Source: an uncultured delta proteobacterium (lineage in GTDB: Bacteria > Desulfobacterota > RBG-13-43-22). Taken from it: a stretch of DNA of 64,000 nucleotides. The notes under the pieces are model-generated. The model was not told the origin of the DNA and made no database searches. It was given only the letters and a program-made list of their open reading frames with translations. Of this stretch, positions 21,309 through 28,834 are shown one piece after another (the first letter of the stretch is position 1; every line of letters begins with the position of its first letter). A program made the position numbers and the translations under genes. The stretch is from positions 160,001 to 224,000 of the forward strand of contig CAWBOS010000015.1 of NCBI GenBank assembly GCA_963790475.1, given 5' to 3'.

Positions 21309-21651
21309 ATAAAGCTGTCTGTCTTGGCCGGAAAGGAACCCTTATGAAAAAAATAATATTTTCATTGATCGGTTTATTTTTGTTGGGTTGGAGTCTGCCT
21401 GTTTTCGCTGTTCCGTTTTTACAACTGGACATCGGGGGAGGGTATTATAATCCAGCATCTAATGATCCTGGTTATAATCCTCGCTATGATCCTGAGACAA
21501 TAGTAGCTCCTGGAAATAGTTTCACCCTTTATGCCCTTATGAAGGAAGGTAAAAAAACTTCTGTAAATGATACTTATTATTTAAGTATGGCCTTTTATCC
21601 AGGCCTTGAAAAAGCATCCCCAGACCCCAACTTCGGGTCTTTTATTATTAA

Positions 21652-23101
21652 GCCGCATCCGGCATTTTCATGGGTATCCCCAATATGTTGTGGTTATTGA
21701 GGTTTGAATCTTAATGTTGGACAAGTTGGCTGTAGGGGAAATAAATTCAATCCACCACAATGAAAATATATTGCTGTTCGGTAGTGGGATCGATTTCGAA
21801 ATCCACAGGCCAATCGCTTGACCTTTTCTATTTTAGCATTGATACTTTCTCCCAGAGCATTGGTGATTCGATGTCTGGCATAAGTGACGATATTGTCGAT
21901 ATGAGTTTTTAGAGTATTGGCTGCTTTGATGACAGGGGCTAACCGTGAATGGGTTGCCCAAAAATACCATCGCTGAAAATAATGACGCATATGCGCCTCA
22001 TAACGGTAATCCCACAAATGTCGAATGTTTTCTTTAATAGCCCAAGCTCGGCAAACGCGCAGATCTTTTGTCCGAAGCGTTTCAAATTCTTCTCTTCTCC
22101 ATTCCGGAATATTCTCTTGACTCCACAACCACAGATACTTGGTCCCCTTCAGGACGGCCTCTCCTTGCTCAGAAAGCAATCGATGTTCAATCTTTCTCAC
22201 TTTATCCACGGCTTCAAGAACGTACTTCATGATGTGAAAACGATCAAAGACGATCTTTTTTTCCGCTCCAGGAATATAGGCCTTGGTGGCCGCAATATAG
22301 GGATCCCACATGTCCATAGCCACGGCCTGGACTCCGGCCAACTCCTCATGGCTAAACTGCTGATAATAGCTTTCCAGACTTTCCTGTTTCCGATCATCAA
22401 TAACGTACTCAACCGTTCCGTTGTCCAGGTCATATACCAAGGATTCATATTTATGTCCTCGGGCAATAGCCTTTTCATCCACCCCAATACGGGACGGTAT
22501 GCGATGCTCTTTCCGGGACAATCCCCTGATAACAGCTCGTTCCAATGTATTCCAGCTCTGATCCCAGCTCAGACTGCACAGCCTGCCGGTAGCCTCAATA
22601 CTGCATTCTCGGGCTATTCGAATAACAAGGCTTTCAAAGGCATAGGTCATTTCCGAACCATTTTCTCCGAGTTCAGAAGTAATCTGTTTAACTCCATGAT
22701 CAGGACAATTAACCCGAGGCGTCCGAACATGAATATAGGTGGCCATCTGGCAGGTGTCCAGATGCCGATAAATTCTTTCCGGACTATGATCATAAACCCC
22801 ATAAAACTGATCACACTCCGGGCATCTTACTTGTATGTCCTTTTCATGATCAAGATAGATGTCCACCCGTTGCTCCGCTTCATTAAGAATCACCCTGGTG
22901 ATCATCCAGGGGGGATGCAGTCCCAGCAGTTTGTAAAAAAAGGTCTTGTCGTCCATCCCTCTTTCTTTGCTAAAGTCTTTATGTTTTATTTTTTAATAAA
23001 AAAGCGGCTGCGAGAATGGGCCCCTAAACGGCTCGTCGGAGCAGCTGTCTTCCATTGTACCACAACATGTTGGGGGTACCCATGAAAAACCCTGGAGCCC
23101 C
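21652..23101 (-). mobile_element. ISL3-family insertion sequence (1450 bp)
   Basis: ~40-bp imperfect TIRs (..TTTTCATGGGTA.CCCCAA.ATGTTGTGGT); 8-bp TSD ATTATTAA at 21644-21651 and 23102-23109. Confidence 0.92.
21694..22956 (-). CDS. ISL3 family transposase
   Basis: CPEC zinc finger, RHLD, IGVDEK, AMDMWDPY, VFDRFH, TNALGESINAKI. Confidence 0.95.
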   Translation of the reverse strand: MDDKTFFYKLLGLHPPWMITRVILNEAEQRVDIYLDHEKDIQVRCPECDQFYGVYDHSPERIYRHLDTCQMATYIHVRTPRVNCPDHGVKQITSELGENGSEMTYAFESLVIRIARECSIEATGRLCSLSWDQSWNTLERAVIRGLSRKEHRIPSRIGVDEKAIARGHKYESLVYDLDNGTVEYVIDDRKQESLESYYQQFSHEELAGVQAVAMDMWDPYIAATKAYIPGAEKKIVFDRFHIMKYVLEAVDKVRKIEHRLLSEQGEAVLKGTKYLWLWSQENIPEWRREEFETLRTKDLRVCRAWAIKENIRHLWDYRYEAHMRHYFQRWYFWATHSRLAPVIKAANTLKTHIDNIVTYARHRITNALGESINAKIEKVKRLACGFRNRSHYRTAIYFHCGGLNLFPLQPTCPTLRFKPQ

Positions 23102-23574
23102 ATTATTAATAAAACGTTTCAGGGTACCCAAGACATGGAATATGGCAATCCGGGAATCCCCGACCATGGTGTATTCGATACCTATTTCATGTCGTATCCA
23201 TTTAAGTTTGATTCCAATAATCAGGTAGGTTCCTATAACACGCAAGACAACCCTGGTCAATTCAGCGACTATCTTCCGGGAACTGGTTTATACTGTGCTG
23301 CCTTTAATTTTGATACCACCAACTTGAGTGGTGATGTTACCATTCATTTTGATCTTTATAATAATGAAGTTTTTGCTCCTTTTTCTCACGACGCCCAAAG
23401 TGATCCTCCTCCTGAAGGAGTCCCCGAACCGGGGACCCTGCTGTTTTTTAGCCTTGGTTTAGCGAGTTTAATCGGGCTGAGAAGGAAATGGAAAAAATAA
23501 GTTTGGTCCCCATTCTCAAAGACTGAAGGTGAGGGTCAGAAAAACGGTGACCCTTTTTTGCTCAAGCCCGCTAT

Positions 23575-24570
23575 ATGGAAAACCCAGATCCCAACCAATT
23601 CCATTTCCGAGACCTTCACCCTGACATTTACCTGGGAACGACCTCCGATCGTTATGCCGGATGGATCGACCAGATTTATTCAAGGGAGCGCTATGTCGGG
23701 AGGATAAATCGCCGGACAAATGTCTTGGGGGGAAAAAAGTTTATTGAAGAGGTCCTTCCCATAGACAGTGTCGAGGAATATTTTGACCATTTTGGGGTTC
23801 TGGGAATCGACTATACCTTTTACCGCCCACTCACTGAGAAAGATGGAACCCCAACCCAAAACTATCATCTATTAAAGAGATACCATCAGTATATCAAAGA
23901 TGGGGATCGTTTCATTCTGAAGGTCCCCCAAATAATATCTGCCCAAAAGTTCCATAGGGGCAAAGGATATATCCCCAATGAGGACTACCTGAACCCTGAA
24001 ATATTCACCAACCAATTTTACAAACCGGCCTTAGAGGTATTGGGAGAATCACTTACTGGCTTTATTTTTGAACAGGAGTATCAGAAACTTAAAGACCGGC
24101 CTTCCGAAAATAAAATGGCCGAATCGCTCGATGTTTTTTTTGAGGCCATCCCCAAAGATCAACGTTACCATATTGAACTTCGTACCGAATCCTATTTAAC
24201 CCCACCTGTCTTCCGGGTTCTTGAAAAATATGGAGTTGGCCAGGTCCTTTCCCATTGGACCTGGCTCCCCCCCCTTCGAAGACAGTTCGCTAAAGCCGGT
24301 GGGAAGGTTTTTAATACCGCCCAAGAGCTGATTGTCCGGCTGGTTACTCCCATCGATATGCGCTATGAGATTGCCTACCAAAAAGCTCATCCCTTTGATA
24401 AAATGGTCGAGGGAATGCTTCAGCCGAAAATGATCGAAGAAACAGCTCAATTAATGCATAAAGGGTTAGAAATAGGGGCCAAAGTAAATGTCCTGGTTAA
24501 TAATCGAACCGGGGGAAATGCCCCGCTTATCTCCCAAATGATTGCCGAGAAATTCCTTCACCAAGATTAG
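23575..24570 (+). CDS. DUF72 (YecE family) protein
   Basis: LGTTSDRYAGW, IDYTFYRP, ILKVPQ, IELR, VNNRTGGNAP. Confidence 0.85.
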   Translation: MENPDPNQFHFRDLHPDIYLGTTSDRYAGWIDQIYSRERYVGRINRRTNVLGGKKFIEEVLPIDSVEEYFDHFGVLGIDYTFYRPLTEKDGTPTQNYHLLKRYHQYIKDGDRFILKVPQIISAQKFHRGKGYIPNEDYLNPEIFTNQFYKPALEVLGESLTGFIFEQEYQKLKDRPSENKMAESLDVFFEAIPKDQRYHIELRTESYLTPPVFRVLEKYGVGQVLSHWTWLPPLRRQFAKAGGKVFNTAQELIVRLVTPIDMRYEIAYQKAHPFDKMVEGMLQPKMIEETAQLMHKGLEIGAKVNVLVNNRTGGNAPLISQMIAEKFLHQD

Positions 24571-24718: not shown

Positions 24719-25327
24719 TTAAGGTATACCCTCTGGCATCAAGGCAGGCACCGATCGCGCCCTTACATAGTCCGCGCTATTTTCAATTCTCTGAGCATCT
24801 GGGGCGCCCTCGGGTGGTTTTTTCGGATCGAAGCCTGTCTGATCAACAGCCCAGTCATGGCACTCGTCAAAATCCATGGCCTGTTTCTCTTCGCTTTGAC
24901 CCTGGCGGGGGTAGATGAACATCCGGTTTTCCGATTCCTGGCTTGCCGCGGGGGGCTCCTGACTTCCCTCGTCCGGAGGTGGATAATAAAATTCCGGGGG
25001 GTAATAGTAAGGTCCCAGGTCCCATCCTAAGACACCGCCGATAAATAATCCGGGTAAGAGTCCGCCATGCCCACGAAATCCTCTATGCCCTCTAAACCCT
25101 CGAAATCCTTCTCGGCTTCCACGAAATCTTTCACGCTCCCGATCTCCTCGAAATCCCTCATGTCCTCGATCTCCGCGGAATCTTTCATGCCCTCCAGATC
25201 CACGAAATCCTTCACGGCCCCCAGATCCATGAAACCCTCCACCCCCCCGGGCAGCCTTAGCTTGTTTAGACGGCACAAACAGGGTTAACAAAAAAAGGAT
25301 GCTTAATAAACCAATGAGTTTTTTCAT
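24719..25327 (-). CDS. Secreted protein with Gly/Arg/Phe-rich repeats and a C-terminal IYPxxGQS..DECH.WA domain; frameshift near the C-terminus
   Basis: Signal peptide; (G/R)xE(G/R)FRG repeats; a 2-bp shift restores VRAIGACLDARGYTLK*. Confidence 0.7.
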   Translation of the reverse strand: MKKLIGLLSILFLLTLFVPSKQAKAARGGGGFHGSGGREGFRGSGGHERFRGDRGHEGFRGDRERERFRGSREGFRGFRGHRGFRGHGGLLPGLFIGGVLGWDLGPYYYPPEFYYPPPDEGSQEPPAASQESENRMFIYPRQGQSEEKQAMDFDECHDWAVDQTGFDPKKPPEGAPDAQRIENSADYVRARSVPALMPEGIP

Positions 25328-25561
25328 GTCCTTCCCCCCGGCCGGTCTGGAACAGAGAACCGGTTCAAGCTTTTTTTAAGTAGGACTTAAGAAGAACAAA
25401 AAAGTTAAAAATAATCAACAAGACTGATTATGCCCTGACTAAGACTATATTTAATAATGGCTTGTAACACTTTATCAAGAAGAATCAAATCTGAAAAGGG
25501 AAGGAGTAAAGTAACAAAGTTAATAAAACTAAAATTATTCTGACTTAGTTCAATTTTTTTA

Positions 25562-25591
25562 TTGACACTGTACAAATGAACAGTATACCAT
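25562..25591 (+). promoter_or_regulatory. lexA promoter (TTGACA-18-TACCAT) with an SOS box in the spacer
   Basis: CTGTACAAATGAACAG at 25568-25583 = CTGT-N8-ACAG; ATG at 25598 with no SD. Confidence 0.85.
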
Positions 25592-25597
25592 AGAATC

Positions 25598-26206
25598 ATG
25601 AAACCTCTCACAGCCAGACAGAATGAAATTTTGGCTTTAATCAGAGAGTACCAAAACAAACACGGCTACCCTCCCTCTCTTCGGGAGCTGGCCGGCCACT
25701 TCAAGGTCTACCCGAATTCAATCCAAGATCATCTCAAGGCCCTGATCAAGAAGGGATATTTAAGGCGAGAGCCCAACCGCTCCCGTGGGGTAAGTCTGAC
25801 CCGGTCTTCCGGCCAGCTCCGAACCATCCCTCTTTATGGGGCCATCTCAGCGGGAGGACCCCTTTCGATAGAAGAGGACGTGGAGGACTATGTAACCCTT
25901 CCCGAGGGATGGACTAAAGGAGAAGAGGTCTTCCTTCTCCGGGTTCGGGGAGAGAGCATGAGCCCCTTTATCCTCCCTGGAGACCAGGTAATCGTTCGCC
26001 GTCAACAGAGAATCCCTGAAGGAGTAGTCGGGGTTTTCCGCCTGGATAATGAGGTTACCCTCAAGCGTTACTATCGACAAAATGATCAAGTGATTTTGAA
26101 GGGGGATAACCCGGAAATGAAACCCCTGATTATAAAAAAGCAGGACCTGTCCTCTTTTTCGATCCTGGGGAAAGTCATCGGGGTTTATCGCCCTTTAAAC
26201 CTTTGA
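25598..26206 (+). CDS. lexA: SOS repressor LexA
   Basis: LTARQ..IL, PPSLRELA wHTH, SAG cleavage site, GESM (Ser), TLKR (Lys). Confidence 0.95.
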   Translation: MKPLTARQNEILALIREYQNKHGYPPSLRELAGHFKVYPNSIQDHLKALIKKGYLRREPNRSRGVSLTRSSGQLRTIPLYGAISAGGPLSIEEDVEDYVTLPEGWTKGEEVFLLRVRGESMSPFILPGDQVIVRRQQRIPEGVVGVFRLDNEVTLKRYYRQNDQVILKGDNPEMKPLIIKKQDLSSFSILGKVIGVYRPLNL

Positions 26207-26225
26207 GCAAATAAGTATTACCAAT

Positions 26226-28442
26226 ATGACTGCTCGCGGATGGCTTATTGATCTCTATGTCCGGGAAGATATCATAGTCCTCTGGTTCCGTCTTCAATCG
26301 GGGACGCTCCTTTGCCTGACCGATTCTTTCCCATACTGCTTTTATGCCCAAGGTCGCCCAAGGGACTTACTCACTCTTGAAAAAAATCTCTCATACCTAA
26401 TCCGCCGGACAAACTGGACTAAACGCAGGAACTTTTGGACTGGAAAGCTCATTTCCGTTCTGGAACTCGAAGCGATTTCCTTTAAGAAATTATTTGAAAT
26501 CCAAAAGGTTCTCTCCCGCTCCCTTGAAGCCATCAGTTTTTATAACATTGATCTGGCTATCCCCCAGTATTACGCCTATCAAAAAGGTCTCTTCCCTTTA
26601 TGTTATTGCCAACTCGATTGGGAAGAAAAAAGGCTTCTCGGTTTCAAGCTCCTGGACTCTCCCTGGAACCCGGATGCCTTGCTTCCCCCCTTCAAGACGA
26701 TTGAACTTGGTTTAACCCAGGACCCCCAAATCCCGCTGGATCGGGGAAACAGTCTCGAAGTAATTGATGAGGGTAGATCTTTTGAACTGGGCGGGTCGAG
26801 AACGGCCGAGCTTTTAGAAAAGCTCAATACCTATTTGGTGGATCTCAATCCGGATTTAATTATCTCTCGAAAGGGGGATGATCGGATCCTGCCCATACTT
26901 TGGAATTGGTCTCAAAAAGAAAAAATTCCCCTGGCCCTTGACCGGGACCCCCATCCCCCCTTGAGACGATCTACCGGCCAGTGGAGGTCTTACTTCAGCT
27001 ATGGTCAGATTATCTATCAGAGTTCAATCTTCCCCTTATACGGAAGGTTCCATATCGATCAAAGCAACTCCTTCTTTTTTGGCCATGGGGAGTGCGGTTT
27101 GAAAGGGGTATTCTTCTTGTCCCGTCTGACTAAAATTCCCGTTCAAACCATGGCCAGGTCCACCCCTGGGACAGCCATTACTTCGATGCAGCTAAATCGG
27201 GCCGTCCGGAAGGGAATCCTCATTCCCTGGAAAAAAGGAAGACCCGAGGATTTTAAAACCGCCTGGGACCTTTTGGTGGCCGATAAAGGGGGGCTGGTTT
27301 TTCAACCCCCCATAGGACTCAGGGAAAATGTCGCTGAAATCGACTTTGCCTCCATGTACCCGAACATTATGCTCCAGCACAACATTTCCCCGGAGACCAT
27401 GCTCTGTTCCTGTTGTCCGGGGCCGGTAGTCCCTGAAGTGGGATACAATATCTGTCAAAAAAGGGAAGGTTTGATCCCGGAAACCCTGAGACCAATTTTA
27501 GGTCTCAGAGCTGAACTCAAAGCCCGGATCAAGGCCAACCATCCACTGAAGGAAAACTACCAGTCGCTTCAAAAGGCCCTTAAATGGGTTCTGGTTACCT
27601 GCTTCGGGTATACCGGGTATAAGAATGCCCGATTTGGTCGTATTGAGGCCCATGAGGCCATAACGGCCTTTGGTCGGGACAAACTCTTCTTGGCCAAGGA
27701 ACTTGCCGAAGACAGAGGCTTCAGGGTACTTCATGGTCTTACCGACTGCCTCTGGATTGAAGGGCCTGGACTCAACGAGTCCAGCATCAAGGCCCTTCTG
27801 GCTGAGATTGGAACCAAAAGCAAAGTGCCCATAAACCTGGAAGGGATCTACTACTGGATTATCTTTCTCCCTTCGAAGGTCAATGCCAATCGTCCGGTTG
27901 CCAATCGATATTTCGGCCTATTTCAAGACGGGACAATCAAAACCCGCGGGATTGCCTGTTGCCGTCATGATATTCCCATTTTTATTCGAGAGGCTCAGAC
28001 AGACCTTCTGCGGGTTATGGGCACGGCTCATGATCGAAAATCCCTGGAGAACAAAGTGCCGGAAATCATGGACCATTTGGGGGATTTTGTGGCTCGGCTC
28101 AAAGAGGGCCGGGTTGAGACCCAAGAACTGGTTATTACTCGTCGTCTTACCCAAACCCTGGAAGAATACCGGGTCAAGACCCCATCGGCTATGGCCCTTG
28201 AGCAATTTGAGTCAATGGGGTTGACCATCCATCCTGGACAAATGGTGGCTTATCTTCTCCGGGATAGTGGTCTTTCCGGTGAGGATAAAAGAATCCTTCC
28301 CGCCCCTTTCCTCGAAGGGGGAGAAGACTATGACCAAAAAAAGTATCTGGAAATACTGCTAAAGGCTGCTGCCGAATTATTAGTGACCTTTGGATTGGAT
28401 TACAAGGATCTATTTAGTTCCTTCGGGTCAAAAAAAATATAA
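26226..28442 (+). CDS. Family B DNA polymerase, PolB2 (Dpo2-like) subgroup
   Basis: Motif A EIDFASMYPNIM, motif B ALKWVLVTCFGYTG, motif C LHGLTDCLW; no recognisable Exo I/II/III acidic motifs. Confidence 0.88.
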   Translation: MTARGWLIDLYVREDIIVLWFRLQSGTLLCLTDSFPYCFYAQGRPRDLLTLEKNLSYLIRRTNWTKRRNFWTGKLISVLELEAISFKKLFEIQKVLSRSLEAISFYNIDLAIPQYYAYQKGLFPLCYCQLDWEEKRLLGFKLLDSPWNPDALLPPFKTIELGLTQDPQIPLDRGNSLEVIDEGRSFELGGSRTAELLEKLNTYLVDLNPDLIISRKGDDRILPILWNWSQKEKIPLALDRDPHPPLRRSTGQWRSYFSYGQIIYQSSIFPLYGRFHIDQSNSFFFGHGECGLKGVFFLSRLTKIPVQTMARSTPGTAITSMQLNRAVRKGILIPWKKGRPEDFKTAWDLLVADKGGLVFQPPIGLRENVAEIDFASMYPNIMLQHNISPETMLCSCCPGPVVPEVGYNICQKREGLIPETLRPILGLRAELKARIKANHPLKENYQSLQKALKWVLVTCFGYTGYKNARFGRIEAHEAITAFGRDKLFLAKELAEDRGFRVLHGLTDCLWIEGPGLNESSIKALLAEIGTKSKVPINLEGIYYWIIFLPSKVNANRPVANRYFGLFQDGTIKTRGIACCRHDIPIFIREAQTDLLRVMGTAHDRKSLENKVPEIMDHLGDFVARLKEGRVETQELVITRRLTQTLEEYRVKTPSAMALEQFESMGLTIHPGQMVAYLLRDSGLSGEDKRILPAPFLEGGEDYDQKKYLEILLKAAAELLVTFGLDYKDLFSSFGSKKI

Positions 28443-28694
28443 GGTCTTAGATAAAAAATCGGAGGAAGTGCCAGGATAACACTATCCGCTTGCACAAGAC
28501 TCGTCGTCCAAAAAACTCCGGTGTCTGATATGGAAACAAGCGGCCCAAAAGATTGAGGGTGGTTCCTTCCGGCTTGACATTCACTATTAACCGAAAGAGG
28601 CTCGTGGAAAAGAACTTGCCTTTTTAACTTTTAAATAAGGGGGAAATGGGGGGAAGGAGCAATAAACAGAGAAGGATGGGGGAAAAAGGAATGC

Positions 28695-28723: not shown

Positions 28724-28800
28724 AAGTATTAAGAAATCCGTTGTTGAACCCGTAGGGTGTGAATGACGGTCGAAGTTGGTGAACAATTCGATGAGTACGG

Positions 28801-28834
28801 GCATCGGAGGATTTATCTTCGATGCTTTTTTTTT
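28801..28834 (+). terminator. Terminator-like hairpin within the csp leader
   Basis: GCATCGGAGGAT..ATCTTCGATGC followed by T9. Confidence 0.65.

Follow-up and report, generated by a model that had tools for sequence, protein, structure and literature searches.

A lexA-polB2 gene pair in an uncultured delta proteobacterium: a probable LexA-controlled unit for a PolB2 polymerase with partners encoded elsewhere in the genome

The lexA-polB2 locus and its promoter

We analyzed a stretch of 64,000 nt (the window) of contig CAWBOS010000015.1 (C15 here) of assembly GCA_963790475.1, positions 160,001-224,000, and focused on a lexA gene that is directly followed by a gene for a family-B DNA polymerase, polB2. 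The lexA gene (25598..26206, + strand) encodes a LexA of 202 aa –LexA1, the cassette paralogue– and polB2 (26226..28442, +) encodes a polymerase of 738 aa of the PolB2/G2 group, with a decayed exonuclease lobe. A spacer of 19 bp separates them (26207..26225, +). Thus, the list of open reading frames (ORFs) and the sequence bore out what a previous sequence-only reading of this DNA had described: an intact lexA, a 19-bp gap, and a 738-aa family-B polymerase. We use the term cassette for this type of arrangement, where lexA abuts polB2, with a DUF72 gene and a gene for a Gly/Arg-rich secreted protein upstream. The same type of lexA-to-polB2 junction was found in a diverged paralogue on another contig of the assembly (C10:1588213-1590028) and in two congeneric genomes (G003 and G009), so it is not due to chance.

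LexA1 is complete, with an intact cleavage site and Ser/Lys dyad. It scored 191.9 bits on the curated equivalog TIGR00498 (cut-off 110.95) and matched both Pfam LexA_DNA_bind (PF01726) and Peptidase_S24 (PF00717). When aligned to the E. coli-type LexA 7b5g_A, the Ala-Gly cleavage site is SAGG (aa 84-87), the catalytic Ser lies in GESMSP (aa 118-123), and the catalytic Lys in TLKRY (aa 154-158).

Upstream of lexA, inspection of the sequence and a consensus scan point to a promoter with a -35 hexamer TTGACA (25562..25567, +). This hexamer is present at the matching position upstream of lexA in nearly all the relatives of the same family (f1). A putative LexA operator, CTGTACAAATGAACAG (CTGT-N8-ACAG; 25568..25583, +), would fill the spacer between the -35 and the -10 elements. 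The -10 candidates (25584..25591, +) are TATACC at 25584-25589, with a 16-nt spacer, and TACCAT at 25586-25591, with an 18-nt spacer; the consensus scan returned TTGACA-18-TACCAT with 10/12 matches. The lexA ATG lies 6-8 nt past the -10 candidates and no Shine-Dalgarno motif was found between them and the ATG, so we infer a leaderless lexA mRNA. The resident lexA genes of relatives share the short spacing between -10 and ATG, which suggests leaderless mRNAs in them too.

In the consensus scan, the 19-bp spacer showed neither a promoter-like nor a terminator-like site. Past the polB2 stop (~360 bp), there is a terminator-like hairpin followed by a T run (28799..28827, +), with 12 pairs and then TTTTTTTAGG, which is a consensus match only. 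Given the empty spacer and the position of this hairpin, lexA and polB2 are probably co-transcribed. The idea of a two-gene unit controlled by LexA, already put forward in the sequence-only reading, is in line with the 19-bp spacing, with a palindrome of the lexA promoter that resembles an SOS box, and with the lack of a terminator-like site between the genes.

Identity of the polymerase and gene order among relatives

At the domain level, Pfam DNA_pol_B (PF00136) matched aa 314-719 of the polymerase with 112.9 bits. No exonuclease-domain Pfam family was listed at E <= 0.01, in agreement with the lack of exonuclease acidic motifs noticed before. In the alignment with Deep Vent polymerase, the Exo II stretch SRKGDDRILP, with its presumed catalytic positions, faces TYNGDSFDLP, and residues 260-298 of the query (38 residues) correspond to chain residues 254-333, which leaves the exonuclease lobe ~40 residues short. 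Motif A is DFASMYP (aa 373-379), and the two motifs quoted from the sequence are both present: KWVLVTCFGY, motif B, at aa 453-462, and HGLTDC, motif C, at aa 503-508 (27732..27749, +). Within motif C, LTD (aa 505-507) has Leu instead of the first Asp of DxD and retains the second one (D507), which is invariant across 58 aligned sequences, as are 66 columns of that alignment. Most PolB2 have another residue in place of the first Asp of this motif and keep the second one (PMC11791011).

The assignment as PolB2-type rather than Pol II-type held: NCBIfam NF004416 gave 421.8 bits, and the NCBIfam models of Pol II just 45-63 bits. Since the NF004416 score stays below its cut-off of 516 here, and below it in all 14 control genomes, this model cannot name the polymerase group. 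In a sequence search of the PDB, the polymerase matched Thermococcales PolB with an E-value of 1e-48 and E. coli Pol II with 2.7e-10. The structure model, built from a 58-row alignment, had a mean predicted local distance difference test (pLDDT) of 91.8 and displayed a full family-B fold. Its match to Pyrococcus abyssi PolB (Z 28.7, root-mean-square deviation 6.3, 649 aligned residues) was stronger than the one to E. coli Pol II (1q8i; Z 25.5).

Relatives of this polymerase are abundant, with 5253 proteins at E <= 0.001 among 7999 candidates examined. In a scan of species-representative genomes, a single-protein query reached eight close relatives, and an alignment-based query reached at least 575 confirmed ones. 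Among these, the best 80 comprised 78 bacterial sequences from many phyla and two from Methanomassiliicoccales archaea; the earlier view of PolB2 as mainly archaeal is thus outdated. We built trees with no named PolB1, PolB3, Dpo2, or Pol II sequence among their rows, and in them the polymerase groups with operon-linked bacterial and Methanomassiliicoccales homologues. A FastTree phylogeny with a distant PolB (L038) as the root placed both archaeal sequences as the sister group of all the bacterial rows. The bacterial group has been named G2/PolB2 and described as derived from archaeal PolB2 (PMC12926913; PMC11791011). Judged by its sequence, the polymerase of the window is most likely a member of this bacterial PolB2 (G2) group.

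A conserved iRadA-PPB2-PolB2 operon has been described (Makarova, Krupovic & Koonin 2014, PMC4104785; Timinskas, Timinskas & Venclovas 2025, PMC11791011), for example in Leptospirillum ferriphilum (LFML04_0990-0993; PMC4104785). According to both works, its bacterial neighborhoods often hold lexA, and sometimes DUF72 or SRAP; DUF72 is enriched near polB2 (PMC11791011). This confirmed that the linkage of lexA and polB2 was already known from comparative genomics, as the sequence-only reading stated. For bacteria, iRadA-PPB2-PolB2 is given as the sole order seen, in a figure that shows only neighborhoods with all three genes (PMC11791011).

We surveyed the loci of the best 80 of the at least 575 relatives with profiles from this genome's own proteins. 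Sixty-five of them were informative, with at least 2 kb upstream of polB2; the remaining 15 end too near the gene. The upstream genes were LexA-iRadA-PPB2 in 26 of the 65 loci, iRadA-PPB2 in 30, PPB2 only in one, and none of LexA, iRadA, or PPB2 in seven. LexA directly abutted polB2 in one locus (L072), from the window's own genus. The direct adjacency is rare across diverse species (1/65). At 10 of the 10 relatives' loci checked for a LexA box upstream of a polB2 with no partner next to it in the fetched flank, none was found within 500 bp with up to two mismatches.

Relatives of the same family, 59-66% identical, have polB2 in lexA-iRadA-PPB2-polB2 operons or on one contig with them. Among the 20 other genomes of the family, polB2 was found in 17, iRadA in 18, and lexA in 19, and most of them have a single lexA, immediately before iRadA. 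By tblastn, the order is lexA, a 196-aa gene, a 95-aa gene, and polB2 in three loci: L024 (G016), L036 (G022), and L037 (G031). In L027 (G005) and L028 (G010), the 196-aa and 95-aa genes are immediately before polB2 and lexA is just outside the fetched stretch. In five genomes (G004 and G017-G020; loci L020-L023, L030, L048, L057-L059, and L062), polB2 lies 6-11 kb from lexA-iRadA-PPB2 on one contig, with no LexA box in the 500 bp next to it. In the two loci inspected among these relatives (L001 and L004), the genes immediately before polB2 resemble, from their translations, methyltransferase, kinase, and toxin-antitoxin genes. At the window locus, lexA is the only one of these genes upstream of polB2, and iRadA and PPB2 are not there. 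Since the contiguous iRadA-PPB2 pair is missing, we regard the cassette as a derived variant and not as a member of the operon architecture.

Trans-encoded partners, cassette copies, and operators

The assembly has 6.34 Mb in 20 contigs, with three lexA genes and several polB2 loci. The resident locus (C10:971918-973412) consists of lexA3 and the same 196-aa and 95-aa genes. Searching the entire assembly by profile and by tblastn retrieved exactly one iRadA and one PPB2, directly behind lexA3 (C10:971918-972795), and no second copy of either. The sequence-only reading had described a minimal cassette without a RecA/ImuA-like partner. This holds at the locus and fails genome-wide, since the two partners are encoded behind another lexA. 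No polB2 is found at the resident locus (L046, C10:970805-973412): in the position that polB2 has in relatives, an IS200-like transposase gene (971249-971788) is followed by a cupin gene.

Pfam gave no meaningful match for the 196-aa or the 95-aa protein, so we identified both by synteny, the MGRT motif, and the fold. The 95-aa protein starts with MGRTVLPF, and MGRT is a hallmark of PPB2 (PMC11791011). For the 196-aa protein, the structure model (pLDDT 91.1) had DMC1/RAD51/RadA ATPase cores as best folds (E ~1e-9, TMq ~0.70), and its sequence lacks a GK[ST] Walker A motif. A RAD51-type fold without Walker A fits iRadA. A beta-clamp motif has been reported for iRadA (PMC11791011). Eight iRadA proteins from Chloroflexota and Terriglobia (L106, L107, L110, L120, L125, L128, L140, and L142) end in QPRLF or QLRLF, which match this published motif; the end of the iRadA of this genome, KLYPSLFLPERKG, resembles it loosely.

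The PolB2 of the window has kept the loop predicted to bind these partners, from FKTA (aa 343-346; Rad51-like FxxA) to DKGG (aa 353-356) (27252..27293, +). In published models, the Rad51-like motif of this loop contacts iRadA and the D(K/R) motif contacts PPB2 (PMC11791011). F343, K344, T345, A346, D353, K354, G355, and G356 are invariant in six of six sequences; across the 58 sequences, no variation was seen at D353, G355, and G356, and hardly any at K344. We predicted the complex of the window PolB2 with the iRadA of C10. Three runs scored 0.77, 0.76, and 0.77, and the best of three controls scored 0.00, with a contact agreement between runs of at least 95% and a partner pLDDT of at least 79. 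Of 80 solved complexes, 58 reached the mark for this score, as did 2 of 110 mismatched pairs; these figures are only rough because our own alignments were used. The predicted interface comprises residues 336-347, 349-350, and 353 of PolB2 and residues 73-83 and 85-90 of iRadA. This supports binding of the trans-encoded iRadA by the window PolB2 through the FKTA/DK loop, as far as a predicted structure can tell.

We found three copies of the cassette plus fragments, and the one in the window is intact. In the copy at C10:1584760-1590028, lexA is intact, and DUF72 and polB2 are truncated (polB2 at ~aa 385). In the copy at C10:1948491-1954033, DUF72 and polB2 are intact, and lexA is an N-terminal remnant after an internal deletion. 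The copies are ~80% identical in DNA, so they are not assembly duplicates. The ratio of non-synonymous to synonymous substitution rates (dN/dS) between copies was 0.10-0.13 at a dS of 0.6-1.0, with 0.10-0.12 for polB2; it was 0.116 for the window polB2 against the copy at C10:1951826, and 0.096 for the window lexA against its C10 paralogue. A low dN/dS at such dS values indicates long purifying selection, and the cassette lineage seems to be old.

Regarding the origin of the cassette, we compared the trees of both genes. An IQ-TREE phylogeny of 25 polymerase sequences was built with the Methanomassiliicoccales homologues from iRadA-PPB2-polB2 operons as outgroup. The PolB2 clade of the family (100/100) comprised the cassette clade (100/100), the sequences of genera g2/g3 (100/100), and G016 together with genus g1 (98/99), and the order among these lineages was not resolved. 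In the LexA tree, the cassette LexAs (window, C10 copy, G003, and G009; SH-aLRT 95) fell inside the LexA clade of the family (100), and the nearest to them was the lexA of G006, which still heads an iRadA gene (support 87). From these trees, both genes look like an old paralogue within the family, or a transfer inside it, of a full operon from which iRadA and PPB2 disappeared. A recent intragenomic duplication of the resident polB2 of the genus was considered and rejected, as the cassette clade is one of the three lineages at the family level and the dS between copies is 0.6-1.0.

Upstream of the cassette, the window carries a DUF72 gene (23575..24570, +; Pfam DUF72, 73.6 bits), which belongs to the segment duplicated along with the cassette and is found upstream of all three lexA/polB2 copies. 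Between DUF72 and lexA there is a Gly/Arg-rich ORF with a signal peptide (24719-25327, -) and GFRG/ERFRG repeats, for which Pfam had no meaningful match either. Stretches related to it were seen at five or more other places of the genome, one of them beside the paralogous cassette. Farther upstream, an ISL3-family element of 1450 bp (21652-23101; transposase ORF 21694-22956) shares 99% identity with a second copy at C15:512548. The element seems to interrupt a single PEP-CTERM protein gene, with a putative signal-peptide part at 21344-21700 and a putative PEP-CTERM part at 23135-23500.

At the regulatory level, two types of putative LexA operators were found. CTGTACAAATGAACAG matched exactly once in the window, and genome-wide only there and in the promoter of the paralogous lexA (C10:1588183); promoter and operator of both genes are identical. 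The operator of the G003 cassette is CTGTACAAAAGAACAG. The pattern CTGTAC-N4-xxACAG precedes the two cassette lexA genes of this genome (G000), the one of the G003 cassette, and the operon lexA of G016. In 14 genomes of the family, the resident lexA has an exact match to a second box, CCATACAAATGTATGG (CCAT-N8-ATGG type), at the equivalent point of its promoter. The polB2 copy with the deleted lexA has the box CCATACAGACGTATAG and a LexA remnant of the INLGT type. Besides the window site, the boxes compared were those at C10:973429-973444 and C10:1951620-1951635 of this genome and those of loci L046-L064.

The start of the recognition helix tracks the box: YPN(S/A/T)IQDH goes with CTGT, and INLG(T/S)xQDH, YPGSVQDH, or YPATIQDH with CCAT, so the difference lies in the residue that follows Tyr-Pro (Asn vs. 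Gly or Ala) or in an INLG start. The helix of the resident LexA reads INLGTVQDH or YPGSVQDH. In the alignment, the Pro-Asn of LexA1 and that of E. coli LexA occupy the same position. This covariation of box and helix is a lead and not a proof, because it reflects few evolutionary events among related genomes. A switch in the operator specificity of the cassette LexA, relative to the resident one, is a tentative reading of these sequences that we consider doubtful. If it were true, the polymerase and iRadA/PPB2 would be under two separate SOS repressors, and the assembly of the mutasome would need two independent de-repressions. On this same reading, the lexA-polB2 unit would spread and duplicate as a module that regulates itself and draws on the accessory proteins of its host.

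Genome-wide, exact matches to the boxes were found in lexA promoters only. With one mismatch there were 20 boxes of the CTGT type and seven of the CCAT type, and ~14 are expected by chance for a fully specified 12-base pattern (our own arithmetic). Apart from the lexA promoters and the polB2 copy at C10:1951620, none of these matches seems genuine. A further one, C12:1178864, was rejected as an operator since it lies within a coding region. Neither box type was found with up to two mismatches in the 350 bp upstream of recA (C10:1024982) or in the 250 bp upstream of the open frame of the only Y-family polymerase gene (C6:722861). LexA may control little besides the PolB2 genes in this lineage.

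Explanations and comparison with known systems

We propose that the locus is probably a LexA-autoregulated two-gene unit for a Dpo2-like translesion PolB2, for which iRadA and PPB2 would be supplied in trans. It would derive from a bacterial lexA-iRadA-PPB2-polB2 operon minus its two middle genes. LexA1 would bind the CTGT-N8-ACAG palindrome in the spacer of its own promoter and repress lexA-polB2, and, after DNA damage, its RecA-stimulated self-cleavage would lift the repression. PolB2 would then join iRadA and a PPB2 trimer, both from the resident lexA-iRadA-PPB2 operon that lost its own polB2, and the complex would extend primer ends opposite lesions without proofreading. The term error-prone, used in the sequence-only reading, needs nuance in this regard: the exonuclease-free Dpo2 is accurate on undamaged DNA and acts as an extender of mismatched or lesion-opposed primer ends (Feng 2022, PMC8764526).

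Several points weigh against this proposal. A look-up of RNA runs for 25400-28600 listed none that covers the stretch. The genome comes from a metagenome bin whose contamination is estimated at 9.68%, and C15, with the window, and C10, with iRadA-PPB2, are joined by binning only; C10 itself bears two more cassette copies, one of them with an intact polB2. The cassette and resident operators differ (CTGT vs. CCAT), so the polymerase and its partners may not be co-induced. The sister copies are decaying, with a truncated polB2 in one, an internally deleted lexA in the other, and fragments on C15 and C1. G003 has the cassette and no iRadA was found there, in a genome that is only 76% complete. 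The seven of 65 informative loci, from other phyla, that are partner-less within the fetched flank make a stand-alone use possible, and purified S. islandicus Dpo2 is an active polymerase alone (PMC8764526). Finally, the solved Rad51-FxxA complexes may partly account for the score of the predicted complex.

Some of these points would fit a self-sufficient minimal SOS cassette, where PolB2 acts by itself, or aided by nothing but the beta clamp, and does not require iRadA/PPB2. The activity of Dpo2 by itself, the seven loci without flanking partners, and the G003 genome are in line with it, together with the lack of any partner gene between or beside lexA and polB2 and the distance of 6-11 kb between polB2 and lexA-iRadA in at least five relatives. 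However, the FKTA...DK loop is unchanged under a dN/dS of ~0.1, the sole intact iRadA and PPB2 were retained though their polB2 is lost, and the predicted interface scored 0.77 vs. 0.00 in the controls. Thus, we consider self-sufficiency unlikely, and the supply of the partners in trans the most likely of the two.

We also weighed whether the pair is a decaying relic, a duplicated fragment of a mutasome operon that is becoming a pseudogene and has no function now. The truncated or fragmentary sister copies, the ISL3 element close by, and the G009 cassette –whose reading switches between several frames and meets stop codons, and whose operator is half lost– would suit such a decay. In the window, however, both ORFs are intact, all 66 invariant columns are kept (by definition), promoter and operator are intact and the same as in the C10 paralogue, and the dN/dS is 0.10-0.12 at a dS of 0.6-1.0, which makes this explanation very improbable. 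A proofreading SOS polymerase of the Pol II type, as encoded by E. coli polB, is already contradicted and has next to no probability: in E. coli, LexA controls Pol II too, and this family-B enzyme (PMC11791011; PMC12926913) has a similar fold, but the NCBIfam scores, the PDB search, the lack of an exonuclease-domain Pfam match, the lost first Asp of motif C, and the location of close homologues in iRadA-PPB2 operons all argue against it.

The unit with partners supplied in trans has its closest known counterpart in the lexA-iRadA-PPB2-polB2 mutasome operon. Both share the polymerase group, the substitution of the first Asp of motif C, the decayed exonuclease, the FxxA/DK loop, the leading lexA, and a DUF72 nearby, and relatives of the same family own the full operon. 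Unlike the operon, the cassette lacks iRadA and PPB2, its lexA abuts polB2 at 19 bp, it is found in three copies plus fragments, and the partners are encoded behind a different lexA that has lost its polB2, either ~1 Mb away from the closest cassette copy or on a separate contig.

Among characterized polymerases, S. islandicus Dpo2 is induced by DNA damage and accounts by itself for targeted mutagenesis (Feng 2020, PMC7390963), and the motif C of this PolB2 is IID (PMC11791011). The window PolB2 would resemble it as a damage-controlled family-B polymerase without proofreading and with a hydrophobic first position in motif C (IID in Dpo2, LTD in the window). However, Dpo2 is archaeal and not regulated by LexA, and its activity was measured, whereas we infer that of the window PolB2. 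E. coli Pol V (UmuD'2C-RecA) and imuA-imuB-dnaE2 are also LexA-controlled, multi-subunit mutagenic polymerases with a RecA-fold accessory, an analogy with the PolB2 mutasome already drawn in PMC11791011; their polymerases belong instead to families Y and C, and the PolB2 unit has no UmuD-type subunit. E. coli Pol II is similar as a single-gene, LexA-regulated family-B polymerase, but it has proofreading activity and falls in a different group of family B.

The bacterial operon and its linkage to lexA are already published, and the locus reveals no new kind of repair system. Our literature search retrieved no experimental paper on bacterial PolB2, which is known from in silico work only. In the main texts, we found no partner-less lexA-polB2 unit, although the supplementary tables of PMC11791011 may list cases. 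Nor did these texts –the search did not extend to supplements– describe a lexA-polB2 pair coexisting with a lexA-iRadA-PPB2 locus that lacks polB2, or two operator types.

The interest of this genome lies in its being a natural dissection of the mutasome: the polymerase is uncoupled from its predicted partners and has kept the loop, and the partner genes survive without a polymerase of their own. This natural uncoupling makes the published mutasome model testable, both for the need of PolB2 for iRadA/PPB2 and for their supply in trans. The operators of the two closely related LexA proteins differ in both half-sites in a symmetric way, and this pair offers a compact means to study changes in LexA specificity.

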